Assembly: GCA_051002135.1 (NCBI GenBank) | Contig: JBPCMQ010000039.1 | Coordinates: forward strand, 25,510-89,509 | DNA: 64,000 nucleotides | From: Chloroflexota bacterium | GTDB taxonomy: Bacteria; Chloroflexota; UBA5177 | Reading direction: 5' to 3' | Shown here: positions 1,763-53,862 of the stretch, piece by piece | Numbering within the stretch: the first letter of the stretch is position 1 | Layout of the letters: each line of letters starts with the position of its first letter | Translations under genes and position numbers: made by a program | The notes under the pieces: model-generated | The model's database searches: none | What the model was told of the DNA's origin: nothing | What the model saw: only the letters and a program-made list of their open reading frames with translations

Positions 1763-2839
1763 CTACTGCCCCGCGAGCGCGGCGACGTCCGCCGGCGAGC
1801 GTGCCGGCGCCGATCCGCAGACCGGGCAGTCCGGATCGCGACGCAGCCTGAGCTCCATGAATGACGAGCTCAGGGCATCGAACATCAGCAGACGGCCGAC
1901 GAGTGTCTCTCCGATGCCAACGATTAACTTGATCACTTCGTTTGCCTGCAATAGGCCCATTATTCCGGGAAGCACGCCCAGAACTCCCGCTTCGCCTCAG
2001 GTGGGCGCGAGCGACGGTGGTGGTGGCTCTGGATAGACGCAACGGTAACACGGCCCGGCTCCCGCCACGAAAGTCGACACCTGGCCGTCGAAGCTCAGGA
2101 TGCTTGCCGAAACATTGGGCGTGCCCTGTCGCACGCATATCTCATTCAACAGATAGCGGGTATCAAAGTTATCGACGCCGTCGATGACGATGTCGTACCC
2201 CGCGAGGATGTCGTCGGCGTTACTCGCGTCAAGGCGGGTCTCATATCCGACAACCTTGACGTCCGGATTGAGCGCCGCAATTGACTGCCTCGCAGATTCC
2301 ACCTTGGACATCCCGACGCGTTCGGTCGTGTGTATGACCTGGCGTTGTAGATTGCTTTCCTCCACCACATCGGCGTCGACTATGCCAAGTGTTCCCACGC
2401 CCGCCGCCGCCAGATAGAGAGCCGAAGGCGAGCCAAGCCCGCCCACGCCTACGAGGAGAACTTTGGCGTCGAGAAGCTTGAACTGGCCTTCTTCGCCGAC
2501 CTCCGGGATGAGCACGTGGCGGCTGTAACGATGCATCTGGTCGGATGAGAGCGTGCGCGGAATCACAAAGGGCTGTCCAGCATCCTTCCAACCCGTGAAG
2601 CCGCCCCGCAAAGAGCGAACATCCTCGTACCCCATGTCCTGTAAAGTTCTGGCGGCCAGGACCGATCTGGTTCCTCCAGCACAGTACAACAGGACAGGCA
2701 TTCGCTTGTCCGGCACCGCATTTTCAATGCGCAGCTCGAGGTACCCTCGTGGCACGTGGATCGCGCCGGGGATGTGGCCCTCGTCCCATTCGATTTTTTC
2801 GCGCACGTCAATGAGACGCGACGCCTCCGTTTTCCCCAC
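1763..2839 (-). CDS. Rhodanese–ThiF/MoeB E1 fusion (MoeZ-like sulfur-carrier adenylyltransferase/sulfurtransferase). An in-frame TGA at 1997-1999 sits at the conserved active-site Cys position, making it a candidate selenocysteine. The true 5' end probably lies upstream of 2839.
   Basis: Track ORFs 1997..2839 and 1763..1975 are in the same frame, separated by one TGA. The rhodanese active-site loop is CAGGTRS. E1 motifs present: LLVGVGGLGS, the CYRC...CPVCG zinc site, and PEPPPP-SLAPT-[TGA]-GEAGVLGVLPGIMG aligning with MoeB PTCAEAGV / ThiF NCRTAGV. The rhodanese sequence TIEELTLPTFDELFSAAKRNVEEVSVAQASDD continues in frame upstream to a TAG at 2945-2947. Confidence 0.6.
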
Positions 2840-3005
2840 ATCGTCGGACGCCTGGGCAACGGAAACCTCTTCGACATTCCTTTTAGCAGCGGAAAACAGC
2901 TCGTCAAAGGTGGGCAGGGTCAGTTCCTCGATTGTGCATATGACCTATTGTAGCCAAAGCTGAAAGGGCGGCCTATGCCACCTGTTTTTCGTACCGGCCT
3001 CACTG

Positions 3006-9930: not shown

Positions 9931-9971
9931 GGTGCTCTCCCGGGAGAGCGGGACGTCGGCTAAGCTGAGGA

Positions 9972-18835: not shown

Positions 18836-19018
18836 TCCCGACCACTGCCACCGGGAGAACGTGGGCGAAGGCGCTGCGCGCCACGATGACCAGGCCGAGC
18901 GCGACGTACGCCACGCTCGTCACGAGGAACAGGCGCTTACGCAAGAGTCGTCTCCCAGCTCGGTGCCGTATTGTACCGGGCCTCGCTTCGACAGACGGTG
19001 TCCGCTCCCACGTCTGTT

Positions 19019-19363: not shown

Positions 19364-19418
19364 TGTCTTCTCCTGTGGGACGCAATGGCTGGTACCCAAC
19401 GAGGAAGCGAACCAGACG

Positions 19419-20475: not shown

Positions 20476-20754
20476 TGGGCGACTCCTGACTGAGGCGGCG
20501 GCCGGTCGACATACATGTACTGGCACGGCGACACTGGCCTTGCAGTTGTCAAAAGAGAATGGGCTTGCGGTCCCACCTGGCTCTATGCGTCACCGCGCAC
20601 GACCAAGCCCAGAAGGCACCAGGAACAGCCGGGTTTCCTCCCGCTCTCTATCGTAGCACGAGCCTCGAACGCCTCGAAGTCTTACGTGTGCCGCGACGGT
20701 ACTGAATCTACGGATGGCGGCTCGGTGTCGAGCCCTGTATCCCGGGAAGGAATG

Positions 20755-26159: not shown

Positions 26160-28778
26160 TCAGACAGCCGCGACCAGCTGCGGCTCGGACACGTCCGATC
26201 GAAATGTCAGAGCGTCGTCCTCGCGATCCACAACCACCGTGCTGCCCTCTCGGAACCGGCCCTGAAGCACTTCCATCGCCAACGGGTCGAGGATGCTGCG
26301 CTGGATGGCGCGTTTGAGGGGCCTCGCTCCGTACGCCGGATCCCATCCCTTGTCGGCAATCAGCTCCTTGGCCGCGTCCGTAAGCCTGATGGCGAGCTTG
26401 CGGTCGCCGAGACGCTTTTGTAAGCCCGTGACCTGAATTCCCACAATCGTCTTGATCTGGTCCTGCGTCAGACCTCTGAAGATGATGACCTCGTCGATGC
26501 GATTCAGGAACTCCGGACGAAAATGCTCGCCCAGGATGGACATCACGGAATCCCTGACGCGCTCGTAGTTCGCCGGGCCAATGTCCTGAATCAGCTGACC
26601 TCCGATGTTGGAGGTCATGATGATGACTGTGTTCTTGAAGTCAACCACGCGACCCTGGCCGTCCGTGAGCCGGCCATCGTCGAGGATCTGCAAGAGGACG
26701 TTGAAGACGTCAGGCGCCGCTTTCTCGATCTCGTCCAGCAGGAGCACCGAGTACGGCCTGCGCCGGACGGCTTCCGTCAGTTGTCCACCCTCCTCGTATC
26801 CCACATAACCAGGTGGTGCGCCGATCAGTCTGGACACGCTGTGTTTCTCCATATACTCGGACATATCGATGCGGATCATCGCGTGCTCGTCGTCGAACAG
26901 AAAGTCCGCCAGCGCTCGGGCCAGCTCGGTCTTCCCGACACCGGTCGGACCGAGAAAGAGGAAGCTCCCCAACGGGTGATTGGGGTCCTGCAATCCGGCG
27001 CGAGCCCGCCGTACCGCATTGGAGACCGCCTGCACTGCTTCGCCCTGGCCCACGACGCGATGATGAAGTCGCTCCTCCATGTTGATCAGCTTCTGGACCT
27101 CGCCTTCGAGGAGCTTGCTCACTGGAATACCGGTCCACTTGGCCACCACGTCGGCGATGTCGTCCTCGCCGACCTCCTCCTTGAGGATCTGGCCGTGCTT
27201 CTGCATGTCCGAGAGCCTGGCCTCGCTGTTCCGCCGTCTGCTCTCCAGCTCGACGAGCGTGCCATAGCGGAGCTCGGCGGCTCGACCCAGGTCCGTCGCA
27301 CGCTCCGCGTGTTCAATCTCGGCCTTGGTCTGTTCTATCTGTTCTCGGACCGATCGCGTCTCCGCGATAGCCTCCTTTTCCGCTTCCCACTGCGCCTTGA
27401 GCTCATCGGCACGGCCGCGAAGCTCGGCAATCTCTTTGAGGATGCGTTCGTGGCGCTCACGCGTGGCCTCGTCCTGCTCCTTCGAGAGCGCCGTGCTCTC
27501 GATCTGGAGCTGCATGATGCGTCTCTCGATCTCGTCGATCTCATACGGCATCGAGTCGATCTCCATCCGCAGGCGGCTGGCCGATTCGTCCACGAGGTCG
27601 ATGGCCTTGTCGGGAAGGAACCGGTCTCCGATGTAGCGGTGCGAGAGGACGGCGGCCGCGACCAGCGCGGCATCCGTGATTTTGACGCCGTGGTGCACCT
27701 CGTACCTCTCCTTGAGCCCGCGAAGGATACTGATCGTGTCCTCCACCGTTGGCTCGGCGACAAAAACGGGCTGGAAACGACGCTCCAGAGCTGCATCCTT
27801 CTCGATGTGCTTTCGGTACTCGTCGAGCGTGGTCGCGCCCACCATCCGCAGCTCGCCCCGCGCCAGCAACGGCTTCAACATGTTGCCGGCGTCCATGGCG
27901 CCTTCCGCTGCTCCCGCTCCCACGACGGTGTGAAGCTCGTCGACAAAGAGGACGATGCCGCCCTGCGCGTCCTGAACTTCTTTCAGGGCCGCTTTGAGGC
28001 GCTCCTCGAACTCTCCCCGGTACTTCGCGCCTGCGACCATTGCCGCCAGATCGAGCGCGATCACGCGTTTGCCTTTCAGAGGCTCGGGGACGTCCTCGCG
28101 CACGATGCGCTGCGCCAACCCTTCGACAATCGCCGTCTTGCCCACACCGGGCTCGCCAATGAGCACCGGATTGTTCTTGGTACGTCGGGACAGCACCTGG
28201 ATCACACGCCGAATTTCTTCGTCGCGGCCAATGACCGGGTCGAGCTTGCCACGGCGCGCGATCTCCGTCAGATCGCGGCCGTAGCGTTCCAGCGCCTGAT
28301 ACGTGTCCTCCGGATTCTTGGTGGTGACCCGTTGGCCGCCCCGAATCGTGGCGAGCGCGGAGAGCACGTTCTCGCGGGTCACGCCCAATTCACGAATCAT
28401 GCGGGCCACCGTGCTCTGGTCCCGGTTGTCGACCAGAGCGAGCAGTAGGTGTTCTACCGCGACGTACTCGTCCTTGAGATCGCCCATGATCTCGTGCGCG
28501 CGGACCAACGTCGCCCGCAGCTCCGGCGATATCGCCGGCTGAGAAAGGCCACCGTACGCCGTCGCCAGTCGGTCGAGAAGGGAATGGTTTCGCTGTGTGA
28601 TCGACGCCACGTTCACGCCGGCACGTGCCAGGATAGCCGTGGCTATACCCTCGGGCTGACTCAGGAGAGCCTCCAGAAGATGCTCCTCTTCAACCTGCGT
28701 ATTGCCCCGCTCGGCTGCCAGCTCCTGGGCCCGAGTCAGCGCTTGCTGCGCCTTTTCCGTAAATCGCTGAATATTCAT
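26160..28778 (-). CDS. clpB: ATP-dependent chaperone ClpB. Start at [11 protein letters not shown].
   Basis: Two AAA+ modules: GEPGVGKT and GPTGVGKTE Walker A motifs. Coiled-coil middle domain. Confidence 0.9.
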
Positions 28779-28844
28779 AGATACCCCCACGTAATTGCTG
28801 CCGGTGCTCGGAACCGGGAGTTTGCCGAGCGCCCGCCTCAATGT

Positions 28845-29237
28845 CTACGAAGACAGGTCCTGCGAGCGGTCCTCGCCCGCCTGCAAGCGCATGATGATGT
28901 CTTTTAGTCGCCAAACTTCGGCGTCGTGTTCGGTTTTGAGAGACTCGATAGTCTCCCCCGCCTGCCTTCGTAGATGCTCCATTTGCTCACGCATGTGGAG
29001 GATGACCTCGACGCCGGCCAGGTTCACGCCAAGCTCGTCCACGAGGCGCCGGATTTGCTGAATGCGCTCAATGTCGTCTAGGGAGAAGTACCGTATCTCC
29101 CCTTTGCCTCGCTGCGGCTCGATCAGGCCGAGACGCTCGTAGTGGCGCAGAGTCTGTTGGTGCACATTGACGATCTCGGCGGCGACGGAGATGGTGTATC
29201 GCCGGAGCTCGCGTCCGCGTCCCTCACTCTGTTTCAT
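28845..29237 (-). CDS. hspR: MerR-family heat-shock repressor HspR
   Basis: YTISVAAEIVNVHQQTLRHYERLGLIEP MerR helix-turn-helix. Position after dnaJ as in hspR operons. Confidence 0.8.
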   Translation of the reverse strand: MKQSEGRGRELRRYTISVAAEIVNVHQQTLRHYERLGLIEPQRGKGEIRYFSLDDIERIQQIRRLVDELGVNLAGVEVILHMREQMEHLRRQAGETIESLKTEHDAEVWRLKDIIMRLQAGEDRSQDLSS

Positions 29238-29255
29238 CTCTTCCCCCCGTCGCAC

Positions 29256-30302
29256 TCACACGCCGGCTTGAGCTAACTGCTGGAATAGATCTCGCTGCCG
29301 CTCGTCCAGCGTGGTGGGAAGGGTGGCGTTTACCCTTACATAAAGATCGCCATGGCCCTGTCCCTTCAGGTGGGGCATTCCCTGACCCGTAAGTCGCAGT
29401 GTCCGCCCGTTCTGACTATTTGCCGGCACGCGCATCGTCCCGCTTCCGGCGATGGTGGGCACTCTGACGTCACCTCCGAGTACAAGAGTGGTGACCGGCG
29501 CAGTCACGTCCGCGAAAAGATCGTCGCCCTCACGCTTGAATCGCGCATCGGGCAACACGTGGACGAGGAGATAGAGATCGCCGGACTTGCTGCCAGGTCC
29601 AACGCCGGGATTACCTTCACCCGCCACCCTGATACGCGATCCATCCTTCACACCCGGGGGTACCTGGACGGCCAGGCGGCGCTGCTTGGGGACGGATCCA
29701 GCGCCCTGACAGGTAGGGCACAGTTGGTTGTCCTGTACTCCCGTTCCATGGCAAGTGGGGCAAATCTGCGCGGTCTGAAGGGTCAGGGACAGCTCGACGC
29801 CCTCGTACGCTTGCCGAAGCGTGACATCGATGGGCTGCTCCACGTCGGCGCCGCCATGGCCGACCATCGTCTGCTCCGCTCGCTTGTTGCGGCCGCGTCC
29901 GAAGATGGAGCCAAGGTCGAAATCGAAGCCGCCACCTCCTCCGCCTGGCTGAGTCGCGGTCGCCGTACGCTGCCCGAATAACGTCTCGAAGAAGTCGCTG
30001 AAGTCCCCAGCGGTTTGTCCTCCACTGGATGTGTAGGTGCGGCCATACTGTCCGGAGCCGGCCTGCTGTTGGAAGCGCCTTTCCCAATCCGGCCCCAGGG
30101 TGTCGTACTGCTTGCGCTTTTCCTGATCGGTCAAGACCGCCTGAGCCTCATTTATCTCTTTGAATCTAGCCTCCGCCGAGGCATCGCCCGGATTGACGTC
30201 GGGGTGGTATTTGCGCGCGAGCTTGCGGTACGCGCTTTTGATCTCCTTGTCGGACGCCTTTCTATCGACGCCGAGGATCTTGTAGTAGTCTTTATATTCC
30301 AT
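29256..30302 (-). CDS. dnaJ: chaperone DnaJ
   Basis: J-domain YKKLARKYHPD, G/F region, and four CxxCxGxG zinc-finger repeats. Confidence 0.9.
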   Translation of the reverse strand: MEYKDYYKILGVDRKASDKEIKSAYRKLARKYHPDVNPGDASAEARFKEINEAQAVLTDQEKRKQYDTLGPDWERRFQQQAGSGQYGRTYTSSGGQTAGDFSDFFETLFGQRTATATQPGGGGGGFDFDLGSIFGRGRNKRAEQTMVGHGGADVEQPIDVTLRQAYEGVELSLTLQTAQICPTCHGTGVQDNQLCPTCQGAGSVPKQRRLAVQVPPGVKDGSRIRVAGEGNPGVGPGSKSGDLYLLVHVLPDARFKREGDDLFADVTAPVTTLVLGGDVRVPTIAGSGTMRVPANSQNGRTLRLTGQGMPHLKGQGHGDLYVRVNATLPTTLDERQRDLFQQLAQAGV

Positions 30303-30380
30303 GTCGTCAAGAACCCTCGCCAACCTGTGATGGGAGAGGAGATCGGGAGAGCTCGGCTGCCCTGTCGATCTCCCTCTTGC

Positions 30381-30996: not shown

Positions 30997-32826
30997 CTAG
31001 CCTTCGTCGCTTGCTCTGAACTCGGCGTCGACGACATCGTCGGGGCCGGCCTGTTGCCCGCCCTCGCCGCCGCTCGCCGCGCCGGCAGTGGCCGTGGCCT
31101 GGCTGTACAGCGATGAGGCTATGGGGGCCCAAACCTGCTCGAGATTTTCCCGTGCCGTGCGGATCTGGCCGCCGTCGTTGCCCTTGAGGGCCTCGCGCAG
31201 GCCGCCAAGGGCGGTGTCGACGCTCTGGCGGTCGGTCTCCGAGATGCGGTCACCCGACTCTTTCAGGGTCTTTTCTGTGCTGTATGCCAGCATGTCCGCG
31301 TGATTGCGCTCTTCGGCGGCCTGCCGCGCCTCCGCATCCTGCTGTGCGTACTGCTCCGCATCGCGCACCATGCGGTCGATGTCGGCGCTATTGAGGTTTG
31401 TGGAGGCCGTCATTTTGACGGACTGCTCCCGGCCGGTACCCAGGTCCTTGGCGCGTACGCTCAGGATCCCGTTGGCGTCGATATCGAACGTGACCTCGAT
31501 CTGGGGCAGTCCACGTGGGGCCGGGGGAATACCCTCGAGACGGAAGCGTCCCAGTGTCATGTTGTCGCGAGACATCGGCCGTTCCCCTTGCGTCGCATGG
31601 ATGTCGACCGCCGTCTGGCTGTCTTCCGCGGTGCTGTAGACCTCGCTCTTGGCGGTGGGGATGGTGGTGTTGCGCGGGATCAGGACGTTATTGACGCCGC
31701 CCAGGGTCTCGATGCCCAGAGACAGTGGAGTGACGTCGAGAAGCACCACATCCTTGACCTCACCCATCAGCACTCCGGCCTGGATCGCCGCACCAATCGC
31801 GACCACCTCATCCGGATTGACCCCCTGGTGGGGTTCCTTGCCGCTCATCTTCTTGACGAGCTCCTGAATGACGGGCATACGCGTGGATCCCCCGACCAGA
31901 ACCACCTCGTTGATTTGGCTCTCCGTTAGTTTGGAGTCTTCGAGGGCGCGTTTGAACGGCCCGACGCATCTCTGCGTCAGATCGTCGGTCAGCTCCTCGA
32001 ACGTGGCACGTGTGATCGTCTTGATCAGGTGCTTCGGACCGTTCTGATCGGCCGTGATGAAGGGCAGGTTGATCTCGGTCTGAACAACGCTGGACAGCTC
32101 AACCTTGGCTTTTTCGGCGGCTTCGAGAAGACGCTGAAGAGCCTGCCGGTCTTTGCGGAGGTCGATGCCCTCCTCGCGCTGAAACTCGTCGGCCACCCAG
32201 TCCACAATGCGGCGATCATAGTCGTCGCCACCGAGATGCGTGTCCCCGGAGGTAGCCTTTACCTCGAAAACACCGTCGCCGACTTCGAGCACGGACACAT
32301 CGAATGTTCCACCACCCAGGTCGAACACTAGAATCGTTTCAGCCTGTTTTTTGTCGAGTCCGTAGGCCAGCGCCGCGGCCGTCGGCTCATTGATGATGCG
32401 GAGAACCTCGAGACCGGAGATAGTCCCCGCGTCCTTGGTTGCTTGTCTCTGGCTGTCGTTGAAATAGGCAGGCACCGTGATCACTGCCTTGTTGATGGTC
32501 TCTCCCAGGTACTTCTCGGCGTCCGCCTTGAGCTTCCCCAGGATCATCCCCGAAATCTCTTGCGGCGTGTACTGTTTGCCGTCGATGCTCACCGTATCGT
32601 TCGTGCCCATCTTGCGCTTGATTGACGCAATAGTCCGATCCGGGTTGACAACCGCCTGCCGCTTCGCCAGCTGGCCAACCAGGCGCTCGCCCGTTTTCGT
32701 AAATGCCACAACGGACGGCGTGAGACGGCTTCCTTCGGTGTTTGGAACCACCATCGGCTCACCGCCCTCCATGACGGCGACGACGGAATTCGTCGTGCCG
32801 AGGTCGATTCCCACTACCTTCGCCAT
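30997..32826 (-). CDS. dnaK: chaperone DnaK (Hsp70)
   Basis: [22 protein letters not shown] and the other Hsp70 signatures. AAGGAG Shine-Dalgarno 6 nt upstream. Confidence 0.95.
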
Positions 32827-35649: not shown

Positions 35650-36693
35650 CTACGGTGCGAGAGCCAGGGAGCAGCCGTCCTCGGACCCATCTATCCGGCC
35701 TACCGGACAATACAGGCTATCGTTCGAGAGAGCACCGCGGAAGGCCTGACAGTTTTTTGGTTCCAGGGCAACAAGTAGACCTCCGGAGGTCTGAGGATCG
35801 GACAAAAGGTCGGCGGTCACACCGTCGATGTCTTCACCGGCTTGTACGTACCGCTCGACATATGCTTGATTCGTCCTGGTTCCACCGGGAACATGTCCGG
35901 TCGCGGCGTAATCGCGAGCACCGGGCAGCAGAGGAATCGAGGAGATGGAAATGTGAGCGCTCACACCCGAGGCCATGCAGAGGTCCGCCAGGTGACCGAG
36001 CAGGCCGAAGCCCGTGATATCGGTAGCGGCGTGAGCATCGGCCTCGGTCATTGCCGTCGACGCCGAGCGATTCAACGTAGTCATCCAGCGAACCGCTTGT
36101 TCGACGTCCGCCGGCCGTGCCGCTCCTGCCTTGAGCGCCGTCGCGATCACACCCGTCCCCAGCGGCTTGGTCAGTACGAGGACATCGCCGGGCTGGGCCC
36201 CACGGGCCGTCATCATGCGCCGCGGATCGACGGTTCCTGTCACGGCGAGGCCGTATTTTGGCTCCGTGTCGTCGACCGTGTGGCCTCCGACGATCGTCAC
36301 GCCCGCCTCGCGCGCTTTATCGGCTCCCCCGCGCAAAATATCCGCCAGCACGTCCGCACCCAGCGAGGCCATGGGGAAGGCGGCAATATTGAGAGCCGTC
36401 AGGGGCCGCGCCCCCATCGCGAACACGTCACTGAGCGAGTTGGCGGCCGCGATCTGTCCGAACGTGTAGGGATCGTCGACGATGGGCGTGAAAAAGTCGA
36501 CGGTCTGGACCAGGGCAAGGTCGTCGCGCAAGCGGTAGACAGCCGCGTCGTCCGCCGGATTGTCGCCTATTAGGAAGTTGGGATCCTCGCTCCGAGGAAG
36601 GTGGCGCAGCACGTGCGCCAGATCAGCATGGCTGACCTTGCCCGCTCAGCCTGCAGAGCGCACGAGCGAGGTCAGGCGCGCATTGGACTGCAT
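35650..36693 (-). CDS. selD: Selenide, water dikinase (selenophosphate synthetase), selenocysteine-containing form. The in-frame TGA at 36646-36648 encodes Sec in the G-U-AGK motif. Start is the ATG at 36693; track ORF 35650..36612 is only the post-TGA part.
   Basis: Upstream in-frame translation gives MQSNARLTSLVRSAG-[TGA]-AGKVSHADLAHV, matching the SelD N-terminus (E. coli ...[15 protein letters not shown]) with TGA at the Cys/Sec17 position. GGAGG Shine-Dalgarno 6 nt before the ATG. The rest of the protein carries the AIRS-domain motifs DDAAVY, GGHT and PQTSGGLL. Confidence 0.85.
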
Positions 36694-36721
36694 GCTTTCC
36701 TCCTTTGACAGAGTTTGAGCA

Positions 36722-37786
36722 TCAATTCACGCCGGCAGCGGAGCTGGCTTCGGCAGAGTGGACGACGGCTTCCACCAGCGTGCGGCCCCCGTCGCGCACC
36801 GGATCGGTGACTGGAAGGCCTGTGACGTCCGCCGCCTCGGCGATCGTACGCCGCGCGTTTCTTTCATCCATGTCGCGCGTGTTCAGACAGATGGCGACCA
36901 CGGGCGCGGGTTTGACCCAGCGAGCGGCCTCCTCGTAGAGCGCGACGAGGCGATCCAGGGGAGGGATGGCAAGCGGGTACTGATCGATGTGCGTTCGGCT
37001 GGGCTGGTGCACGAGAATCATCGCGTCGGGCAACGACCCGTGCAGCAGCGCCAGGGTGACGCCACTGTAACCCGGGTGCAGAAGCGATCCCTGACCCTCG
37101 ACGAAAACCCAGTCCGATCGCTCCGCCGCCTCGATAACCAGCCGCTCGGCCGCGCCCGCCATGAAGTCGCCGATGACGCGGTCGATGGCAATTCCCCCTC
37201 CGTCCAGCATGATACCGGTCTGTCCCGTCGCCACGAACTCGGCTGAGAGCCCGAGGTCCCGCGCCGCCGTGACGACCTCCAGCGCCGCGGTCATCTTCCC
37301 GACCGCGCAGTCGCTACCGACAAAGGTCACAACCCAGCTTCCCGAGCGCCGGGGATGCAGGCCCGCGACGTCGATCTCCGCCGGAGGGCGACGCACGTCG
37401 ACGAGATTAACCCCGTGTTCGTGAGCTGCCCGGGCGAACTCGGGATCGTCGTCCAGCATGTAGTGTAGGCCGCTAATCACATCCAGACCATTCTCGATCG
37501 CGGCAAGAATCTGGCGGCGCCATTCCAGCGGCAGTGCTCCACCGCGGGGTGCGATCCCTACGAGGAGGGCGCTTGGCTCGAGACGGAGCGCCGACTCAAG
37601 TGAATCGACTATCGGCGTCGACCCTCCGACGCCAAGAACCTGACCGGCGGTGAGTCCGGCATGGACCGAGTCGATGACCGCCACGACATCTTCGGGCCGG
37701 TATCGAAGAATGCTCACCGCCGTTTTTCCGTGGTGGAAGTCAAGCATCTTCTGGGCAAGGATCGCCAGACGACGCGGCGCTTCCAC
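36722..37786 (-). CDS. DUF1611-family protein (Rossmann-like N-domain plus P-loop-like C-domain); function unknown
   Basis: Two-domain layout with a glycine-rich VTFVGSDCAVGKMTAALEV segment. Ends 26 nt upstream of the selD start on the same strand. Confidence 0.55.
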   Translation of the reverse strand: MEAPRRLAILAQKMLDFHHGKTAVSILRYRPEDVVAVIDSVHAGLTAGQVLGVGGSTPIVDSLESALRLEPSALLVGIAPRGGALPLEWRRQILAAIENGLDVISGLHYMLDDDPEFARAAHEHGVNLVDVRRPPAEIDVAGLHPRRSGSWVVTFVGSDCAVGKMTAALEVVTAARDLGLSAEFVATGQTGIMLDGGGIAIDRVIGDFMAGAAERLVIEAAERSDWVFVEGQGSLLHPGYSGVTLALLHGSLPDAMILVHQPSRTHIDQYPLAIPPLDRLVALYEEAARWVKPAPVVAICLNTRDMDERNARRTIAEAADVTGLPVTDPVRDGGRTLVEAVVHSAEASSAAGVN

Positions 37787-37836
37787 ACTATTCTCCTGAT
37801 TGGCAAAAGTATCGTCGAGAGGGATGGCGTCTCAGT

Positions 37837-38475
37837 TCAGGTTGTGCTTGTCTCAGCGGCTTTACGTTGGCGCTTCTTCTTGTCTGCCGCCTGGCTGCGC
37901 GTCTGCGACCAGACCGAATAGAGCCGCTGCAGGGCCGTGAGGTGGGTCAGCACGGCGAGAATGACGAGGGCAGCCAGCGTCGTGCGCTCCTGAAACAGCA
38001 GTCCGATGCCGAGAATCAGAACCCGCTCCGGCCGCGGCACGATGCCTACTGTGGCGTCCAGACCCAGCCCTTCGGCGCGTGCACGGGCATAGCTGATGAG
38101 GATGGATCCGACGGCGACGACGTACACCAGGAGGACGCTCGCGGTCTGGTGGCGAACCGTGAACTGAAAGATCAAAGCAAGCAAAACCGCGGCTTCGGAA
38201 TAGCGGTCGAGCAAAGAGTCGAGGAAGGCGCCAAAGTCGCTCTGCCGCGAGGTCACGCGCGCCAGGGCGCCGTCAAGCATGTCGAACAGGCCGGCGAGAA
38301 ACAGCAACGCCCCGCCCGTGCTCAGATGTCCTTTCGCTATGACGCCGGCGGTAACCACGTTGAAGACAAAGCCGGCGACGGTGATCGCATTGGGCGTCAC
38401 TCCATGCCGAGCGAGCGGCCGCGCAACGACCTCCGCCACGCTTCGGGCCCAGATCTGGAGGAATCGGGGAACCAT
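37837..38475 (-). CDS. CDP-alcohol phosphatidyltransferase (phosphatidylinositol(-phosphate) synthase-like)
   Basis: DMLDGALAR...G...DSLLDRYSE matches the D-G-x2-A-R-x8-G-x3-D-x3-D motif. Multi-TM protein. Confidence 0.75.
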   Translation of the reverse strand: MVPRFLQIWARSVAEVVARPLARHGVTPNAITVAGFVFNVVTAGVIAKGHLSTGGALLFLAGLFDMLDGALARVTSRQSDFGAFLDSLLDRYSEAAVLLALIFQFTVRHQTASVLLVYVVAVGSILISYARARAEGLGLDATVGIVPRPERVLILGIGLLFQERTTLAALVILAVLTHLTALQRLYSVWSQTRSQAADKKKRQRKAAETSTT

Positions 38476-38477
38476 CG

Positions 38478-39677
38478 TTAGATGGAGGGATTCGGCACGG
38501 TGATGGGGGCGGGTGAGTAACTGGCCACGGCACGCTCCCCGGTTTTGACGTAAAGATCAAGCAGCTGCTCGGCAATGCGCTGCCAGGAGTACTGGCTGCT
38601 GGTCTCGAGCCCGCGCCTTCCCATTTCCGCCCCAAGGCCGCGATCCTGCAGAACGGAGCATACGGCGTCGGCCAGGGCGTGCTCGTCGCGTGGCGGCACC
38701 AGGAACCCCTCGGCGCCGTTGGTGACGACCTCGCTATACCCCTCGATGTTGCTCGCAACCACGGGAACACCCGCTGCCATGGCCTCGAGCAAGACGATTC
38801 CGAAGCTCTCGCCGGAGACGGCCGGAGCGCACATGACGTTGGCACTGCGGAGGTAGCGCGGCAGTTCCTCCTCGGAGACGCGGCCCACGATTTGAATATC
38901 GTGCATGTCGTGGCGTTCGATGTAGCGGCGGTAGCGAGAATCGTTCCAGTCTCCGGCGCCGACCACCACGAAACGTGCGTCGGGGAAGGCGTTCTTGATG
39001 TGCGGGTATGCACGGAGCAGATATCCGACACCCTTGCGTTTCTCGGGGCGGCCAACAAAAAGGATATTGGGGCGCCCGTCCATCAGCTCTCGGATGGGCT
39101 CAACCCGACGTGGATCGAATCGTTGGACCTCGACTCCGTTCGGAATCACCCTGTACGGGGCCATGAAGTACTGCCGCACAAAGCGTTTCGCGGCGCGAGA
39201 CACGGCGATGCGCGCGTCGAGCTTGTTGAACACCCGTCGAAGAACGGGACGACCGTAGAAATACCCGTAATACGAGCCTCGATATGCGTGGAACGTGCCC
39301 ACGTTGACCGCGTCCGAATACATGAGGACCGTGGGCGGCAGGGAGGGCATCAGTGGCTCGTGCGCATGGACGACGTCGAATCTTTCCGCGGTGAGTACTT
39401 CGTGGACGCGACGTGACAGGCGAAACGAGAGCGTGATGCGTGCGATCGAGCCGTTGGCGTGGACCTTCCGCACGTTTCCGATGCGGTACACGTCGGTCTC
39501 GTCGCGCTCCAGATTGCGATTGGACGAGGGCGCCATGATTCGCACATCGTGTCCCATGGCACTGAATTCCCGGTACAGGTGTCCGACGTGGCTCGTGACC
39601 CCGCCGGGGTATGGGTAGTCGTACGGCGAGACGAGCGCTATCTTCATCGGTTGGCTTTCCAACCGGAGGTGAACCAT
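38478..39677 (-). CDS. GT-B retaining glycosyltransferase (Pfam Glycos_transf_1 / CAZy GT4), PimA-like
   Basis: MKIALVSPYDYPYPGGV N-terminus and C-terminal E-x7-E region (ESFGIVLLEAMAAGVPVV). Confidence 0.75.
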   Translation of the reverse strand: MVHLRLESQPMKIALVSPYDYPYPGGVTSHVGHLYREFSAMGHDVRIMAPSSNRNLERDETDVYRIGNVRKVHANGSIARITLSFRLSRRVHEVLTAERFDVVHAHEPLMPSLPPTVLMYSDAVNVGTFHAYRGSYYGYFYGRPVLRRVFNKLDARIAVSRAAKRFVRQYFMAPYRVIPNGVEVQRFDPRRVEPIRELMDGRPNILFVGRPEKRKGVGYLLRAYPHIKNAFPDARFVVVGAGDWNDSRYRRYIERHDMHDIQIVGRVSEEELPRYLRSANVMCAPAVSGESFGIVLLEAMAAGVPVVASNIEGYSEVVTNGAEGFLVPPRDEHALADAVCSVLQDRGLGAEMGRRGLETSSQYSWQRIAEQLLDLYVKTGERAVASYSPAPITVPNPSI

Positions 39678-39698
39678 CCCATCATGCGCACCGCTTCC

Positions 39699-40703
39699 CT
39701 ACGAGATGTCCTTTCCGCCCACCCGTGCTCGCGAGTGTCGCCCTATGCTAGCAGCCGCGTCAGTACCTGCGCCGGAATCCCAGACCGGGCTGAAGGCCAG
39801 CCATTGTTCCGGGTGGGCGCGAATCGCGGCCTCGATGACCCGGGCTATTCTCGCGGTATTCTCCGTGTCGTCGACCTTCTCATCGCCGGTCAACTCTAAC
39901 GGAATCGGCAAGATGATACCGTGAAACCTACCCGAAGGGAGGCGGATACCGACAGCCATGACCACGGGCGCGCCAAACCGGCGGGCGAGCGCCGCGGCGC
40001 CGGTTGGAAGTGCCGCCGGCCGCCCGAAGAATGGGACCTGTGCCGTCCGCCCGCTGATCACGCGGTCGCCGGCCACGGCCACGACCTGTCCAGCTCGGAG
40101 GGCACGAAGCATGGCCCGAGGGGCGTGATCCAGGGGAACCACATCCACCCCCTGGCTCCGCCTACTGACCGCCAAGAAGTCGAATAGAACGGGTGGCTCC
40201 ATTCTCTCCACGGGAATGGTCACCTGGAATCCCTTCGCCGCCACGACCTGACCGACGAGGTCGAAGTTGCCGAGATGGACGAGCATCAGGACGACGCCTC
40301 GCCCTTGGGATGCCGCCTGCACCAGGTGCTCCCACCCGTCGACGTCCACGAGGTCGATGAGCTGGGAGCGAGTCAGCCGTCCGATACGAAGAGTGTCCAC
40401 CCAGTTCCTGGCATCGGTTCTGAACGCCTCGCGAGCAGCACGACGTACCGTTGGGTCCCGGACGGACGCCGTCAGAACGACGGACAGATTTGCCAGGATG
40501 GAGCGCCTGGCGGGAACGACGACGTAGAAGGCTAGGAACCCGGCGCCGGATGCCAGGGCGTAGGCGAGCGAGAGCGGAATGAATCGCATCATCCAGGTGA
40601 GCGAGCGGAGGAGCAGGTACAGCACGTAGTTGCGTGTCACCGGCACGTCCGCGATGGCTTGCTCGGATACAGCCGAAACCGGCCGGCGTCTGCCGGCCGC
40701 CAT
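39699..40703 (-). CDS. Lysophospholipid/lipid A-type acyltransferase (LpxL/HtrB family), analogous to the PIM acyltransferase
   Basis: N-terminal TM segment. HLGNFD (HxxxxD acyltransferase motif). Family-typical length. Confidence 0.7.
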   Translation of the reverse strand: MAAGRRRPVSAVSEQAIADVPVTRNYVLYLLLRSLTWMMRFIPLSLAYALASGAGFLAFYVVVPARRSILANLSVVLTASVRDPTVRRAAREAFRTDARNWVDTLRIGRLTRSQLIDLVDVDGWEHLVQAASQGRGVVLMLVHLGNFDLVGQVVAAKGFQVTIPVERMEPPVLFDFLAVSRRSQGVDVVPLDHAPRAMLRALRAGQVVAVAGDRVISGRTAQVPFFGRPAALPTGAAALARRFGAPVVMAVGIRLPSGRFHGIILPIPLELTGDEKVDDTENTARIARVIEAAIRAHPEQWLAFSPVWDSGAGTDAAASIGRHSRARVGGKDIS

Positions 40704-40732
40704 CGCGGATTGCGACGGGTGGAGGTGAAGAC

Positions 40733-41839
40733 CTAGGCCACGGTCGCCACTACCGGCTCAACCACTTGGGCCGTGGCTCGGATGAACGCCGCCGTCATCT
40801 CTCGCGCCTTGGAGTCGGTATATTGGACCGGCGGCGATTTCATGAAATACGCCGAGGGCCCTTCCAGGGCTCCGGCGATGTTGTGATCGAGAGCAAGTTT
40901 GATGCACCGGATCGCGTCGATCACGACGCCGGCGGAGTTCGGCGAGTCCCAGACTTCCAGCTTGAGCTCGGCGTTGAGCGGGACGTCTCCGAAAGAGCGA
41001 CCCTCCATGCGTATGTACGCCCACTTGCGGTCCGTGAGCCAGGGAACGTAATCGCTCGGCCCAATGTGAACGTTCTTCGCACCCACATCGTAGTCCAGCT
41101 GCGAGGTGACGGCGTTGGTCTTGGAGATCTTCTTGGACTCCAGACGCTCCCTCTCCAGCATGTTGAGAAAATCCGTGTTGCCACCGACATTAAGCTGGCT
41201 CGTGTGCTCCATGCGGACTCCACGATCGCGGAAAAGGTTCGTCAGGACGCGGTGCACTATCGTCGCACCCACCTGGGATTTGATATCGTCCCCGATGATG
41301 GGTAGGCCCGCTTGCTCGAAACGACGCCGCCAGTAGTCTTCACGGCCAATGAACACCGGAATGCAGTTGATGAAACCGCAGCCCGCCTGCAGCACCTGCT
41401 CGACGTACCATTTGGTTGCCTGCTCGCTGCCCACCGGGAGATAGCTGATGACCACGTCCGTTTGCGTGTCTTTCAAGATCTGCACGATGTCAGCCGTTGG
41501 TCCAGGAGCCTTGGTGATGACCTCGGAGAGGTATTTTCCGAGCCCATCATGGGTCATGCCACGATTGACCTTGACGTCGAGGTGCGGCACCTCCGAGAAC
41601 GTGTAGGTGTTGTTCTGACCCGAAAAGATGGCAAGGGACAGATCCTTGCCGACCTTCTCGACGTCGATATCGAACGCGCAGCTGAACTCAATGTCGCGAA
41701 CGTGGTATCCGCCGAGGTTGACGTGCATCAGCCCGGGAACAAATTCGTCCTCTGAGGAGTTCTGGTAATACTGAACGCCCTGAACCAGCGCGGAGGCGCA
41801 GTTCCCAACTCCAACTATTCCCACTCGAATCTTTGACAC
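40733..41839 (-). CDS. ino1: myo-inositol-1-phosphate synthase
   Basis: [21 protein letters not shown]-binding N-terminus, and the conserved core ([14 protein letters not shown]) of the bacterial/archaeal MIPS family. Confidence 0.85.
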
Positions 41840-41854
41840 TCTTTGTCTCCTTCT

Positions 41855-42352: not shown

Positions 42353-44100
42353 TCACCGTGCGACGGAGGACACGGAGGCCGGCCGCTCGCTCGGCGAGCG
42401 CGATCCCGGCTGGTATCGCTGGACGAAGAACGAATGCAGCTCCGTGGCGTCCTCCACGCCGGCAAAAGACTCGCTGATCTCTCGCGACGAGACCATAAAG
42501 GGAAACATCTGCACGCCCCCCAGCCCTCCATGCGCGCCGCCATGATCCTCGAAGTTGACGACTCGCGCCCCGTCGAACGCCCCAAAGACCAGCATATCTC
42601 CCGCGGACGGCATCCGGGCCAGGTTGACGAGCTGGTGCCGAACGAGCTCAGGTGTGTCGTACAGGGCGAGCCAGGCGAGCTCATCGGATTCCGCATTGTC
42701 CAGGACGACCTCGCCTCCTTTGTGGAGCGCCAGAGTTTTGCCATTCTCCTGGATCAAGACCAAACCAACGCCGGGATGCTCCACCAGCGATCGCAGCATT
42801 CCCGGTGCACGGTGGTCGATTTCCCCACGGTTCATGCGTTTTGGAACGTCCACAAAGTAGACATTGGCCAGAGCACTGGAATAGATCGCCAGCAGGGGGG
42901 CATTCTCGTTGTCGGCCAAGCCGGCCTGCAGTGGTCCGGTGCCAATGCGCATCGCCACCCGCATGGCTCGGTCAACGATGAAACTGGTGGCCGAGCTGGT
43001 GCGTGGTCCGATCTCGGCGGAAAGCTCCTCCACCTGGTGAAGGGTCGCGGCGTCCTTGAAGGTGCGGCTTTCCATCTCCTGGGCCATGGGCGGACTCACC
43101 CCGTGAGAGGCGAGGAAATGTCCTAAAGTCTCGCCGTAGAGCTCGTGAAACGGCAGTGACTCGGTCATACCGTGATCGCTCATCACAAAGAGATCGTAGG
43201 GCCTCAGGGCTATTGTCTCGATGGCGCGATGCACGTCTCGAATCTGGCGGTCGAGGGCTTTGAGCGTCCGATACGCTCCCCCGCTCCTGGGACCGAGGTG
43301 GTGGGCTACCTCGTCATAGCCGATGTAGTTGGCGTAGATGGCGGGCACACCGCGAAAGATGTCCAAGCGTATGGCCAGAGTGGTCAGCTCGCGAAAGAGC
43401 ACGTGCGTGAAAGCACGCGTCAGGGGGAATATCCCCTCCGGCGCCACATACGTCCGCCGCAGCCGTCCCATCGCCTGCTGGTACAGCTCGATGAAGACTT
43501 CGGCGACAGTCAAAATGGCGGCTCGCGCCAGCCGCCAGGGGTTTAGCACGAGCAGCAAGAAGGCGTCGATGCCTGTCAATCGGGGAGGAAACCGCGTTCG
43601 TCCCAGGGCACTGGTTGTGAAAACGGCGCGCTGTGCGCCTCCACTCGCCATCCCTGTGTAGACACTGCCATGTCGGAACAGACCCGCCTGCCCGCCCGCG
43701 TTTTCGGCCTCAACCGTCGCCATGTCCAACGGCCAGCTGCAGATCAGGGGGCGCTGTTTTCTCTTGTCGAACCAATAGAAACCGGGGATATTTGGCTTGC
43801 GGCCATACATCATCGAACATTGGATAGCTGCCGTATCGCTCGGTTGCCCGCAGCGCCACAGGGCCACCTGATGCGATGATGAGAGCAGATGACTTAGGCA
43901 TGGCATGTACCCACGCTCGAGAGCGACGGATAGGTCGTGGTGGGAGAGGGCGTCGATCTGAAGGACGACGAACCCTCGACGCCGGCGCTCGATCTCGCTG
44001 AACGGAAGACGGAGACGGCGAAGCGTTGCGGCCGCCTTCAGAGCTCCCAACGTTCCCCCTAATGACAGATGCACGTGATTACTCCAGCATTCCGCTTTGG
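42353..44100 (-). CDS. Alkaline-phosphatase-superfamily protein (type I phosphodiesterase/nucleotide pyrophosphatase family). The true start is uncertain; the track start at 44290 would overlap divergent moaC.
   Basis: VLQIDALSHHDL near the N-terminus, YIGYDEVAHHLGP, LFVMSDHGM, metal-ligand motifs of the AlkP core. Confidence 0.5.
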
Positions 44101-44167
44101 TGCGAAACCTGCCGATTCTAGCGGCTTGCAGCACGACAACCGAAACACGTAGCCCGAGGCTTGAGCC

Positions 44168-44665
44168 ATGAGAGACGACTCGTTCGGATCCCGACTGACC
44201 CACGTCGATGAGGACGGAGAGGCGCGTATGGTCGACGTCACAGACAAGGACGTCACCGTGCGCGAAGCGCGAGCGCGCGCCGCCGTGCATATGTCCAGCG
44301 AGACCCTCGAGCTCTTACGGACCGTGAGCGCGCGCAAGGGCGACGCGCTGGCGGTCGCTCGCATCGCCGGCATCCTGGCGGCGAAGCGCACGTCCACGCT
44401 TATCCCGCTGTGTCACGGCCTCCCCCTCTCGACGGTGCGTGTGGAGCTCGAGCTGGACGCCGCGACGCAGACGGTCCTCATCGAGGCGTATTGCCGAACG
44501 GAGGCCAAGACTGGGGTCGAGATGGAGGCCTTGATGGCAGTTTCGGTGGCGGCCCTAACCGTCTACGACATGTGCAAAGCGGTGGACAGGGCGATGACGA
44601 TTGACGACATTCACGTGACGTACAAGTCGGGCGGCCGCAGTGGAATTTTTGAGAACGAGAGATAG
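44168..44665 (+). CDS. moaC: cyclic pyranopterin monophosphate synthase MoaC
   Basis: LTHVDEDG, ARAAVHM, KGD, LIPLCHGL and IEAYCRTE are canonical MoaC motifs. Confidence 0.9.
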   Translation: MRDDSFGSRLTHVDEDGEARMVDVTDKDVTVREARARAAVHMSSETLELLRTVSARKGDALAVARIAGILAAKRTSTLIPLCHGLPLSTVRVELELDAATQTVLIEAYCRTEAKTGVEMEALMAVSVAALTVYDMCKAVDRAMTIDDIHVTYKSGGRSGIFENER

Positions 44666-44687: not shown

Positions 44688-46115
44688 TCAGACGATCTGG
44701 TACTCCCTGATTTTCGCGTACAGCAGCCCGCGGTGAATGCCCAGGAGCTTTGACGCCTGACTGCGATCTCCGCCGGCTTGCTGCAAGGCGGCCTCGATAG
44801 CCTGGCGCTCGGTCTCGCCGACGATATCCTTCAGGGCTATGCCATTGGCCACCTTTTCTGCGACATGAGCGTCGAGCAGCGCACCGCGCTTCCCGGGCGC
44901 TCCAATGAAAGCGATCTGGGACGGCATGATGACCGAGCCGCGCGCCTGAATGATCGCCCGGTGCACCGTGTTCTCGAGCTCGCGCACGTTTCCGGGCCAC
45001 GAATAGTCCATGAGCGTGTCCAGGGCTTCCTCGGAAATTCGTGGATTGTTGTCCGGCGCGTCACTACGGTACTTTTGCAAAAAATGCTCGGCGAGTAACG
45101 GCACGTCGTCCATTCTGTCTCGTAGGGGTGGCAGCTCGAGGGCAATGACGTTCAGCCGGTAGTACAGGTCCTCGCGGAACCGACCCTCCGCCACCTCCTC
45201 CGCGAGGTCGCGATTGGTTGCGGCAACAATCCGGGTGTCGACCTTGATCGGCACGCTACTGCCGACACGCTCGAACTCGCGCTCCTGTAGGACTCGCAGG
45301 AATTTTTTCTGAGTGTTGAGCGACATCTCACGGATCTCGTCGAGGAAAATGGTTCCCTTGTCGGCCATCTCAAAGCGGCCCTTGCGGGTCTTTACGGCGC
45401 TGGTGAAGCTTCCCGCCTCGTGACCAAAGAGCTCGCTTTCCAGCAGAGACTCGGTCAGAGAGGCGCACGGCACCTTGACATACGGACCGTTTCGGCGGTG
45501 GGAGTTGAAATGGATGGCCCCCGCGACCAGCTCCTTGCCGGTGCCACTCTCGCCGGTCACGAGCACCGTTGCGTCCGTCCGCGCCACCCTCCCGATGGTC
45601 TTGTACACCTGCTGCATGACCGCCGTATTTCCGATGATGTTGTCGAGCGGATCACGGATCGTCTCGTCCACCGCCCGCGCCTTTATCGCCAAATCACGGT
45701 GATCCAGCGTCCGGCGCACGGTCATGAGCAGATCATCCAGCTCGAACGGCTTGGTGACATAGTCGTACGCGCCCCTCTGAATCGCCTCGATGGCGATGTT
45801 GGAGGTCCCATATGCCGTCATCATCAGGACCGGGATCGCATCCATGTTGAGGCGTTTCATCTGGTCGAGGACCTCGAGACCGGTCATTCCCGGCATGCGG
45901 ACATCCATGATCACGAGGTCGGGCCGATGTTTGTTGATCGCCGGAACGACGTCCCGGCCCGCCTTGACCTCCGCCGTGCGAAATCCCTCGGCGTCGAGAA
46001 AGCTTTGTAGCAAGCCTCGAATCGACTGATCGTCATCCGCAACCAAGATCAGCCGTTCGGCCTTGGTCGTTGACGCCGTCTTAGCGGCTTCCGGGGACTC
46101 TACCTGGTCGACCAT
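44688..46115 (-). CDS. Sigma-54-dependent response regulator (NtrC/Fis family): receiver, AAA+ sigma-54 activation domain, HTH
   Basis: Receiver domain with DDD...[14 protein letters not shown] Walker [16 protein letters not shown] as a GAFTGA-type loop. C-terminal Fis-type HTH. Confidence 0.85.
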
Positions 46116-46243: not shown

Positions 46244-48133
46244 GTGAGATATGAGGGGGTGACAGTGAAAGTCATCGGCACGGCCGGCCACATCGACCAC
46301 GGCAAGTCGACGCTCGTGCGCCATCTCACCGGTATCGATCCCGACCGGTTGGAGGAGGAGAAACGCCGCGGCATGACCATCGATCTCGGGTTCGCCTGGT
46401 TCTCCATGCCGTCCGGGGAGACCGTCAGCGTCGTGGATGTGCCGGGGCATGAGCGCTTCGTCAAAACCATGCTGGCCGGTGCGGCGGGAATCGACATGGC
46501 GCTGGTGGTCATCGCGGTCGACGAGGGCGTCATGCCGCAGACTCGGGAGCACCTGGATATTCTCGAGCTCCTCGAGGTACGGCGAGGCGTCGTGGCGCTG
46601 ACCAAAACGGATCTGGTGGATGAGGAGTGGGTGGGCCTGATCACGGATCAGGTGCGTGAGGCGCTCAGCCACCGCATCCTTGGGCGTATGGCGATAGTCC
46701 CGGTCAGCTCCGTCACCGGCGCCGGCATCGACACTCTTCTGGCACGCATGTCCTTTGAGCTGGCGAAGATCGGCGATCGACCGCAGGCCACCGTGCATTA
46801 TCTTCCGGTGGATCGTGTCTTCGCCATGAAGGGATTCGGTACCGTGCTGACAGGAACTCTGCAGGGCGGAGAGATCCGACAGGGAGACCCGATCGAAATC
46901 GTACCCGGCGGCCGGCGAGGTCGCATCCGGGGACTACAAACGCACAACAACCTGGCAGAGCGCGCGGCGGTGGGTGACCGGGTCGCGTTGAACGTCGTCG
47001 GTCTGTCCCGCGACGATGTCCGTCGCGGCGATGTGGCCGCGGAACCGGGGACAATTGTCGAGACGGATCACGTCGACGCCTTCGTGCGCGTTTTGCCCGA
47101 GGCTCGGGCGCCGCTCGTCCATGGCGCGCAGGTTATGGCTCATCTTGGCGCCGCCGAGCGCTCCGCTGCGATCCGCGTACTGTCCGGATCTGTCATCGAG
47201 CCGGGCTCGTCGGGATGGGTACGCCTGCGCTTCGGCGACTCGGTTGGGGTCATTCGGCGACAACATGTGGTTCTGCGAGTGCCGGCGCCGGGGCGGACGA
47301 TTGCCGGCGGTCTCGTGGCCGACCCCAGTCCGGCCCGGCGTCGAATCGATGCTGCCGGTCTTGAACGTCTCGAAAGTCTCCTCTCGGACAATCTCCACAT
47401 AGCCGCTGAAGCCGCCCTCAGCGGCAGGCGTCCCCGAACGGCTCCCGAGATCGCGCGCCTGCTCGGCGTGGACGTCGAGACGTCGTCGCGGACCTTGAAC
47501 CATGTGGTTGCGAACGGGTGCGCGCGCCGCCTAAGCAACAGCTACGTGACAGGTGCCGGTTGGCAGCAGATGACCGAGCGCATCCGAGCGAAGCTCGCGA
47601 AGTATCACGAGACATTTCCCTCTCGACGGGGTATGCCGCGTGAGGAGCTCCGCCGCAAAGTGGGATGGACGGTTGACACCTGGAGTGCCGCCCTCACCGC
47701 ACTCGAGCGTGACGAAACGGTCCGCACACGAGATTCGGTAGTCAGTTTGCCTGACCACCGGGGCGGCATCGACGATCGGCGTGAGCAGGCGGACCGGGTC
47801 ATCGCCTTACTCCGCCAAACTCCGTATGCTCCTCCCGCGGCGTCTGCCGCCATCGGGCAGGTAGGCGCGGATTCTTCCCTCCTCCTGGCGATGGTAGAGG
47901 AGGGTTCTCTCGTGCGCGTCGACGAGGATCTGTACTTCGACCGAGAGACATTGGAGGCGATGACGGTGCGGGTTCTGGATTCCATCAGAAGTGAGGGTCA
48001 GGTAACGGTGGCACAAGTGCGCGACGCCTTCGGCACATCTCGCAAGTACGCCCTTGCTACCCTCGAGTACCTCGACGGCGAGCATCTCACACGCAGAATC
48101 GGAGAGGCCCGGATCCTCGGCAGTAAAGCGTGA
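46244..48133 (+). CDS. selB: selenocysteine-specific translation elongation factor SelB
   Basis: EF-Tu-like GTPase N-terminus ([26 protein letters not shown]). Long C-terminal extension with repeated winged-helix-like segments, as in SelB, and total length of 629 aa. Confidence 0.85.
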
Positions 48134-53840: not shown

Positions 53841-53862
53841 GGGGAATTTTGGGGAATGAGGA

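Follow-up and report, generated by a model that had tools for sequence, protein, structure and literature searches.

The gene for selenide, water dikinase (selD) lies on the minus strand of a 64,000-nucleotide (nt) stretch of contig JBPCMQ010000039.1 from a Chloroflexota bacterium, the whole of which is referred to here as the window. The listed open reading frame (ORF) for this gene opens at a GTG codon (36612), which corresponds to Val28 of a longer protein obtained by reading the same frame from further upstream through an in-frame TGA, and lies 3' of that TGA. This TGA is examined here as the putative codon for selenocysteine (Sec), together with the stem-loops that follow it, the Sec machinery in the window and a second candidate gene of the same kind. 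The features at the selD locus are as follows.

35650..36693, minus strand: full-length coding sequence (CDS) of selD, 347 amino acids (aa) including Sec16, read-through translation
35650-35652, minus strand: final stop codon of selD, TAG
36646..36648, minus strand: in-frame TGA, predicted Sec16 codon, in the column of Escherichia coli SelD Cys17
36699..36703, minus strand: Shine–Dalgarno sequence GGAGG, with a 5-nt spacer to the ATG at 36691-36693

The minus strand reads AAGGAGGAAAGC-ATG(36693)-CAG TCC AAT GCG CGC CTG ACC TCG CTC GTG CGC TCT GCA GGC-TGA at the start of the gene, and continues after the TGA with GCG GGC AAG GTC AGC CAT GCT GAT CTG GCG CAC GTG(36612). An in-frame stop lies 12 codons 5' of the ATG, with no ATG, GTG or TTG in between. 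The read-through translation of 347 residues is MQSNARLTSLVRSAG-U-AGKVSHADLAHVLRHLP..., from which an N-terminus of MQSNAR... and the peptides MQSNARLTSLVR and SAG-U-AGK (across Sec) are predicted. An identical selD sequence is found in a JGI contig (locus L163). An earlier, sequence-only reading of this DNA had located the ATG, the GGAGG, the TGA, the GTG of the listed ORF and a hairpin 25 nt 3' of the UGA, and had considered the ORF start to be miscalled. All of these positions proved to be right on the minus strand, the distance to the hairpin was measured as exactly 25 nt and the extended frame is borne out by homology across the TGA.

With U replaced by C, the read-through protein matches NCBIfam TIGR00476 (selD) with 398 bits (cut-off 125) over residues 6-313, the alignment opening upstream of the TGA. 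It contains the Pfam domains AIRS and AIRS_C. Its best match among solved structures (phmmer against the PDB) is E. coli SelD 3U0O (7.6e-76). Residues 3-20 (SNARLTSLVRSAGCAGKV) align with this structure such that residue 16 corresponds to Cys17 and Lys19 to Lys20, in agreement with the position that the sequence-only reading had assigned to the TGA, namely Cys/Sec17 of the SelD glycine-rich loop. The equivalents of Cys17 and Lys20 are taken here, following established SelD biochemistry, to be the catalytic residues of this loop. Translation from GTG 36612 would yield a protein without the loop or either of these residues.

Relatives of the gene were collected at two levels. Protein homologues were the best 120 from a collection of 5.8 billion proteins, and the state of the Cys17 column was read at the DNA level in 160 loci, 80 each from species-representative genomes and from metagenomes. 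The best 120 homologues show 57-69% identity, apart from the window's own ORF, and belong, where named, to Chloroflexi/Chloroflexota metagenome-assembled genomes; they are 315-373 aa long, all but two being 315-326 aa. None of the 120 reaches the G-x-G-C/U-x-x-K loop. All of their annotated starts fall after it, and all but one open with M[AST](D/E/G)L..VLR or [MV]LR..., just past the TGA column. These downstream starts vary among the relatives, which use either the M of the H/M position or the V/M of VLR. In the DNA of the 160 fetched loci, the Cys17 column is occupied by TGA in 117 and by TGC or TGT in 43, and never by a codon for Trp or Arg; the alignment against Sec-type and Cys-type SelD suggested in the sequence-only reading places both residues in one column. 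The motif (R/K)LT....(A/S)G upstream of this column is conserved at the protein level in these loci, and the relatives' genes have an M 14-16 codons ahead of the TGA. The N-terminus upstream of the TGA had been claimed to be conserved, and indeed the 15 residues 5' of the TGA are kept in the relatives; starts downstream of it are those of the automatic gene calls.

The metagenome contig loci (identity of 59% or less) are remoter than the relatives from the protein search and are suited to the Sec/Cys census, not to the close clade. For the latter, eight further relatives were fetched singly, two with 10-kb flanks (L161 and L162) and six with 3-kb flanks. The TGA follows (R)LT(S/T)L(V/A)(R/Q)xAG in all eight, and it is present in 24 of the 24 same-clade relatives examined. 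L161 and L162 share the whole gene order of inositol-phosphate/phosphatidylinositol-lipid genes, DUF1611, selD, lon, dnaK, grpE, dnaJ, hspR and clpB, and the six relatives with shorter flanks show the core of GT4, phosphatidylinositol-phosphate synthase, DUF1611 (not called in L166), selD and lon up to the contig limits. In ten relatives, ARAGORN located a tRNA-Sec within the fetched flank of a TGA-type selD.

Two hairpins lie immediately 3' of the UGA; positions in them are counted with the U of the UGA as 0.

36620..36638, minus strand: hairpin H1, AGGUCAGC-CAU-GCUGAUCU, +10 to +28, with +10..+17 paired to +21..+28
36602..36620, minus strand: hairpin H2, UGGCGCA-CGUGC-UGCGCCA, +28 to +46, with +28..+34 paired to +40..+46

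The stem of H1 has 8 bp and that of H2 has 7 bp; the loops, CGUGC in the case of H2, begin 15 nt (H1) and 32 nt (H2) past the UGA. The two abut and share one nucleotide (U at 36620), and the minimum free energy fold of the single sequence likewise contains two adjacent hairpins after the selD UGA. H2 is the hairpin that the sequence-only reading had put forward as a candidate Sec insertion sequence (SECIS) element. This proposal holds as far as H2 is concerned, which is real and conserved, but the second conserved hairpin between the UGA and H2 had been overlooked.

Covariation was evaluated in 16 close sequences, chosen by protein similarity and not by pairing, and with 500 shuffles. Standard pairs make up 90% of the H1 and H2 cells, compared with 25-54% in slid registers, and the observed covariation score was reached in 0 of the 500 shuffles. 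In H2 the paired fraction is 98%, with one pair divided between U-A (8) and C-G (7); in H1 it is 82%, with three pairs changed on both sides. RNAalifold predicts both helices unprompted, for H1 its core. Among distinct selD genes, a perfect H2 (7/7 pairs in the exact register) is found in 33 of 113 Sec-type genes and in none of 42 Cys-type genes, and no perfect match occurs in slid registers. The genes with a perfect H2 come from Chloroflexota, from Bacillota (Pelotomaculum, Vallitalea, Lachnospiraceae and Tissierella) and from Geotalea and other Deltaproteobacteria.

The pair +32/+42 is seen as G-C, A-U, C-G, U-A and G-U, and all of the loops fit N-G-U-N-N. The pair +33/+41 is C-G or, in genes with Tyr instead of His/Gln and with UUA or CUA as the Leu codon, U-A. 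Covariation links the third position of the Ala codon to the first position of the codon that lies two residues past Val, and this latter codon accordingly specifies Arg, Cys, Gly or Ser. Residue 30 of SelD (Arg/Cys/Ser/Gly) follows the third base of the Ala25 codon, five codons earlier. These two bases pair in H2, and thus the RNA structure appears to dictate residue 30. A hairpin at the position of H1 is present in most Sec-type selD genes, including nearly all of those without H2 (GGUCC-NNN-GGACC, with the loop at +19 to +23). Hairpins of 6 bp or more within 66 nt are a feature of 95 of 113 Sec-type as against 16 of 42 Cys-type genes. The division into Sec-type and Cys-type selD offers a clean natural control for selection on H2 as RNA. 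Since H2 is perfect in Sec-type genes only and covaries through several types of pair, the comparison indicates that it is an RNA structure under selection and linked to the presence of the UGA, and the compensatory changes in Sec-type genes and their absence from Cys-type genes favor its candidacy as a SECIS element.

Part of the machinery for decoding Sec is encoded in the window itself. NCBIfam was scanned with 50 ORFs, called from their length and their G+C content at third codon positions (GC3), and with three alternative ORFs.

46244..48133, plus strand: selB, Sec-specific elongation factor (TIGR00475), 9.5 kb from selD

SelB matches TIGR00475 with 316 bits (cut-off 242) over profile positions 2-579 of 581, and Pfam identifies GTP_EFTU, SelB-wing_2 and SelB-wing_3 in it, the wing domains being SECIS-binding winged-helix domains. 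The true start of the gene is likely to be GTG 46265, behind GAGGGGG. The gene is divergent from that of a sigma-54 response regulator (44688-46115, minus strand). TGA is also the commonest ordinary stop codon in the window (26 of the 50 called ORFs whose ends lie within it), and hence the genetic code is not globally reassigned.

A second candidate selenoprotein gene is present near the start of the window.

1763..2944, minus strand: rhodanese plus MoeB/MoeZ/ThiF-type adenylyltransferase, with TGA 1997-1999 at a conserved Cys and the final stop TAG at 1763-1765
1962..1984, minus strand: hairpin 3' of the UGA of this gene, GUUCUGGG-CGUGCUU-CCCGGAAU, loop from +23

The frame across the TGA of this MoeZ-like gene reads ...PCYRCVYPEPPPPSLAPT-[TGA]-GEAGVLGVLPGIMGLLQANEVIKLIVG...DPDCPVCG... 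to the TAG at 1763, the predicted Sec context being LAPT-U-GEAGVLG. Homology continues for 77 residues past the TGA, to the C-terminal CPVCG motif, and the column of the TGA holds the conserved Cys in E. coli ThiF (..RNCRTAGVVG..) and in Uba4 (..TSCGEAGIMG..). Among the 120 homologues listed, a motif search found Cys at this position in 57, and a further 12 full-length homologues read by eye also have Cys; eleven of the latter (70-79% identity) read LAPSCSE(I/V)GVLG. The closest full-length homologues read LAPSCSEIGVLG. In addition, 22 homologues of 305-309 aa (75-80% identity) stop exactly at ...LAPT, and in the two of them that were read at the DNA level (L170 and L171) a TGA is followed by a conserved reading frame. 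The remainder past the TGA is sometimes called as a separate ORF of 64-70 aa (3458-3652 in L170 and 3443-3655 in L171). The hairpin is kept in both loci as GU(U/C)CUGGG-CGUG(C/U)U(U/A)-CCCGG(A/G)AU, with one compensatory change from U-A to C-G and with CGUGCUU or CGUGUUA as the loop.

In the MoeZ-like gene, no ATG, GTG or TTG lies near the start of the relatives (MPTFDELF), where the window has CTG-CCC-ACC-TTT-GAC (LPTFDELF) 7 nt after GAGGA. The gene therefore probably starts at CTG (2915-2917, minus strand). It adjoins an ORF of the ThiS family and a CysM-like cysteine synthase, which in relatives are joined by a JAB protease, and this neighborhood is that of a sulfur-carrier-protein pathway. 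The features expected of a MoeB/ThiF-type selenoprotein are thus all found here, namely a UGA at a conserved Cys, homology beyond it, alternation of Sec and Cys and a conserved hairpin. MoeB entered the literature as a selenoprotein family with the Sargasso Sea survey of Zhang, Fomenko and Gladyshev (2005), which contained 11 such sequences (PMC1088965). The window gene resembles the Sargasso Sec-MoeB in its family (ThiF/MoeB adenylyltransferase) and in the use of UGA for a conserved Cys (PMC1088965), and differs from it in its N-terminal rhodanese domain and in its cluster of ThiS-like, CysM-like and JAB genes.

The MoeZ-like gene provides independent support for Sec decoding in this organism. 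This decoding had been asserted in the sequence-only reading, together with the advice that other in-frame TGAs be re-examined, and both points gain from the complete selB and from the presence of a second TGA at a conserved Cys within the same window. A crude scan of the window for TGA codons, limited to sites with a frame open on both sides, a high GC3 and a GU-containing hairpin loop on a stem of 6 bp or more, gave nothing credible beyond the MoeZ-like site. The scan did not recover selD itself and is thus not exhaustive. Its matches at 12267, 21000 and 58427 were dismissed because clearly identified genes lie there in another frame or on the opposite strand. The same-frame abutting ORFs of dnaJ, hspR and clpB (26160-30380) were also considered as cases of read-through, and are separate genes, each with its own family match.

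On these comparisons, the selD UGA is predicted with high confidence to encode Sec, and selD to be a selenoprotein gene starting at ATG 36693. By analogy with the established bacterial Sec pathway, from which the whole mechanism is inferred, translation would start at this ATG, and UGA 36646-36648 would be decoded by Sec-tRNA(Sec) delivered by SelB. SelB itself would be recruited by a stem-loop within the selD CDS just 3' of the UGA, for which H2 is the best candidate, while H1 would probably be a spacer or helper, either bringing H2 effectively closer to the UGA or slowing the ribosome. Sec16 would then lie in the glycine-rich loop (SAG-U-AGK) with the catalytic Lys19, at the SelD site for the binding of selenide and ATP in selenophosphate synthesis.

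It could instead be supposed that the TGA is a genuine stop, that SelD starts at GTG 36612 or at another internal start and that the 15 upstream codons are a leader peptide or non-coding. All automatic gene calls in the databases place the start downstream of the TGA, and the frequency of TGA as an ordinary stop in the window is in keeping with this. However, the shortened protein would be without the loop and its essential equivalents of Cys/Sec17 and Lys20, the 160 relatives keep the upstream codons at the protein level, Cys occupies the column in 43 of them, the downstream starts differ between relatives and selB is present; this explanation is accordingly regarded as extremely improbable. 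Only marginally better is the prospect of selenium-free read-through, in which a near-cognate tRNA would place Trp, Cys or Arg at the UGA and the hairpins would be no more than generic enhancers. Stem-loops near a UGA can promote such read-through in some insect SPS genes (PMC4561486). However, the window encodes a dedicated SelB, a tRNA-Sec adjoins TGA-type selD in ten relatives and the TGA alternates with Cys and not with Trp or Arg. What tells against Sec insertion in the window is that no tRNA-Sec was found in its 64 kb (ARAGORN and Rfam) and that no selA was among the NCBIfam matches of its 53 ORFs; selU (ybbB) and yqeB/yqeC were also not among these matches. To these are added two results on the hairpins. 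Folding of the single sequence 36585-36650 gave an energy no better than that of shuffles (z = -0.86), and thus the support for the hairpins is comparative and not thermodynamic. In Rfam searches of the whole window at the gathering score and of 36500-36720 at E <= 10, no SECIS family was matched, the only matches being tRNA-His, tRNA-Val and chance miRNA or CRISPR families. This non-match weighs little because no single model can cover the diversity of bacterial SECIS elements (PMC9312934).

A separate question is which of the two hairpins SelB would bind. In the SelB–SECIS complexes of E. coli and Moorella, G23/U24 of the loop contact SelB. H2 is considered the likely SelB-binding element, as a candidate, because its covariation is far stronger than that of H1, because its loop has a constant GU, the feature that SelB contacts, because the loop of H1 is variable and because the loop of the hairpin in the MoeZ-like gene opens with CGUGC, as in H2. 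The conservation of this GU is not independent evidence, since it is also part of a conserved Val codon. Furthermore, the loop of H2, at +35, is further from the UGA than that of most other Sec-type hairpins (+19 to +23), and H1, which lies at the canonical distance, could thus be the true SelB site. The range of distances for bacterial SECIS (bSECIS) elements given by Zhang and Gladyshev in 2005 is reportedly 16-37 nt, and the stem-loops of both H1 and H2 conform to the bSECIS definition. If H1 (36620-36638) were the SelB-binding SECIS, H2 would be an accessory or an unrelated conserved structure of the mRNA, and selD would still be a selenoprotein gene. The Sec-type genes without H2, which mostly carry only the hairpin at the H1 position, and the conservation of H1 in the close clade with some compensatory change both speak for this assignment. 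It is nevertheless thought to be unlikely, because the H1 loop is unconserved (CAU, GCG, CGU, AUG, CCCGA...), with no constant G or GU, because the much stronger covariation and the invariant GU loop belong to H2 and because the loop of the MoeZ-like hairpin is H2-like and not H1-like.

The arrangement of stems in published models also tells against the assignment to H1. SelD bSECIS models for several lineages were presented by Mariotti et al. (2015) in supplement file 9 (PMC4561486), and in the Clostridiales models, as described in that supplement (Suppl. S6, Fig. SM6.1A), a bSECIS-like stem2 is placed downstream of stem1 and not nested in it, stem2 alone fitting the bSECIS (PMC4561486). H1 and H2 are arranged in the same way as this stem1 and stem2, a likeness of published description and not of base-by-base comparison (PMC4561486, supplement), and the fetched selD genes of Lachnospiraceae, Pelotomaculum, Vallitalea and Tissierella have H2 in a register identical to that of the window. 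As with the SECIS of E. coli fdhF, H2 is a stem-loop 3' of the UGA within the CDS with G-U in its apical loop. It differs in that the GU lies at +36/+37 instead of about +22/+23, in having no obvious bulged U and in the extra hairpin that fills the gap. A tentative extension of the H2 assignment, thought possible but doubtful, is that the SECIS is bipartite in this clade and in about one third of Sec-type selD genes from various phyla, the distal SelB-binding H2 (GU at +36) working only because the adjacent H1 folds and thereby moves it to where the ribosome can be reached. If so, an RNA constraint would be strong enough to dictate position 30 of SelD (R/C/S/G, tracking the third base of Ala25), and a loop at +23 from the UGA (MoeZ-like gene) and one at +35 (selD) would both be accepted by one SelB in the same genome.

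The other genes of the window were noted as follows. Directly upstream of selD, and syntenic in Chloroflexota relatives, is a cluster (36722-41854, minus strand) comprising DUF1611 (with a sub-threshold match to the DgcN family), a phosphatidylinositol-phosphate synthase-like CDP-alcohol transferase, a GT4 glycosyltransferase, a phosphatidylinositol mannoside (PIM)-type acyltransferase and inositol-3-phosphate synthase. It is an actinobacterial-style set of inositol-lipid genes with no evident functional link to selD. In the L163 contig, dnaK (8332-10165) is in two pieces, of 480 aa without a Pfam match and of 138 aa with HSP70, as against one ORF of 609 aa in the window (30997-32826); the split probably reflects a frameshift or an assembly difference on the L163 side. 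Long ORFs with high GC3 (up to 681 aa) and no strong NCBIfam match lie at 13241-17354, 18203-20582, 42353-44314, 47998-48876 and 53860-54795; that at 42353-44314 has a weak Pfam match to a phosphodiesterase.

As a selenoprotein of bacteria, SelD ranks with the best known and the most widely distributed (PMC9312934, PMC1088965, PMC4561486), with 28 Sec and 23 Cys forms in the Sargasso survey and 16 Sec and 22 Cys forms in completed genomes (PMC1088965), and the Chloroflexi are listed as Sec users (PMC1794560). The Sec-SelD proteins of Haemophilus influenzae, Aquifex aeolicus, Deltaproteobacteria and Clostridia are of the same fold and family as that of the window and have UGA at the same column of the G-x-G-U/C-x-x-K loop. 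The known genes and that of the window also have in common a SECIS stem-loop, a candidate one in the window, within the CDS just 3' of the UGA, and orthologues that alternate between Sec and Cys (PMC1088965, PMC4561486). The loop of the window SelD is S-A-G-U-A-G-K in place of G-A-G-C-G-C-K, and the protein belongs to another, uncultured Chloroflexota-like lineage, with 69% identity or less to any fetched relative; nothing essential differs.

Sec-SelD, its SECIS models (including the tandem-stem type) and Sec-MoeB have already been published, and the finding is therefore an annotation fix and not a discovery; the current understanding of selenoprotein biology is unchanged by this gene. The start of SelD is miscalled here and in all 120 of the nearest database entries, from which the catalytic loop with Sec and Lys is missing. 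The mis-annotation is systematic, all of the 119 closest SelD homologues being shortened N-terminally after the Sec codon and about 22 MoeZ-like homologues C-terminally at it. The corrected selD, selB and the MoeZ-like gene indicate that UGA is used for Sec in this lineage, and in-frame TGAs elsewhere in the genome thus need to be screened.

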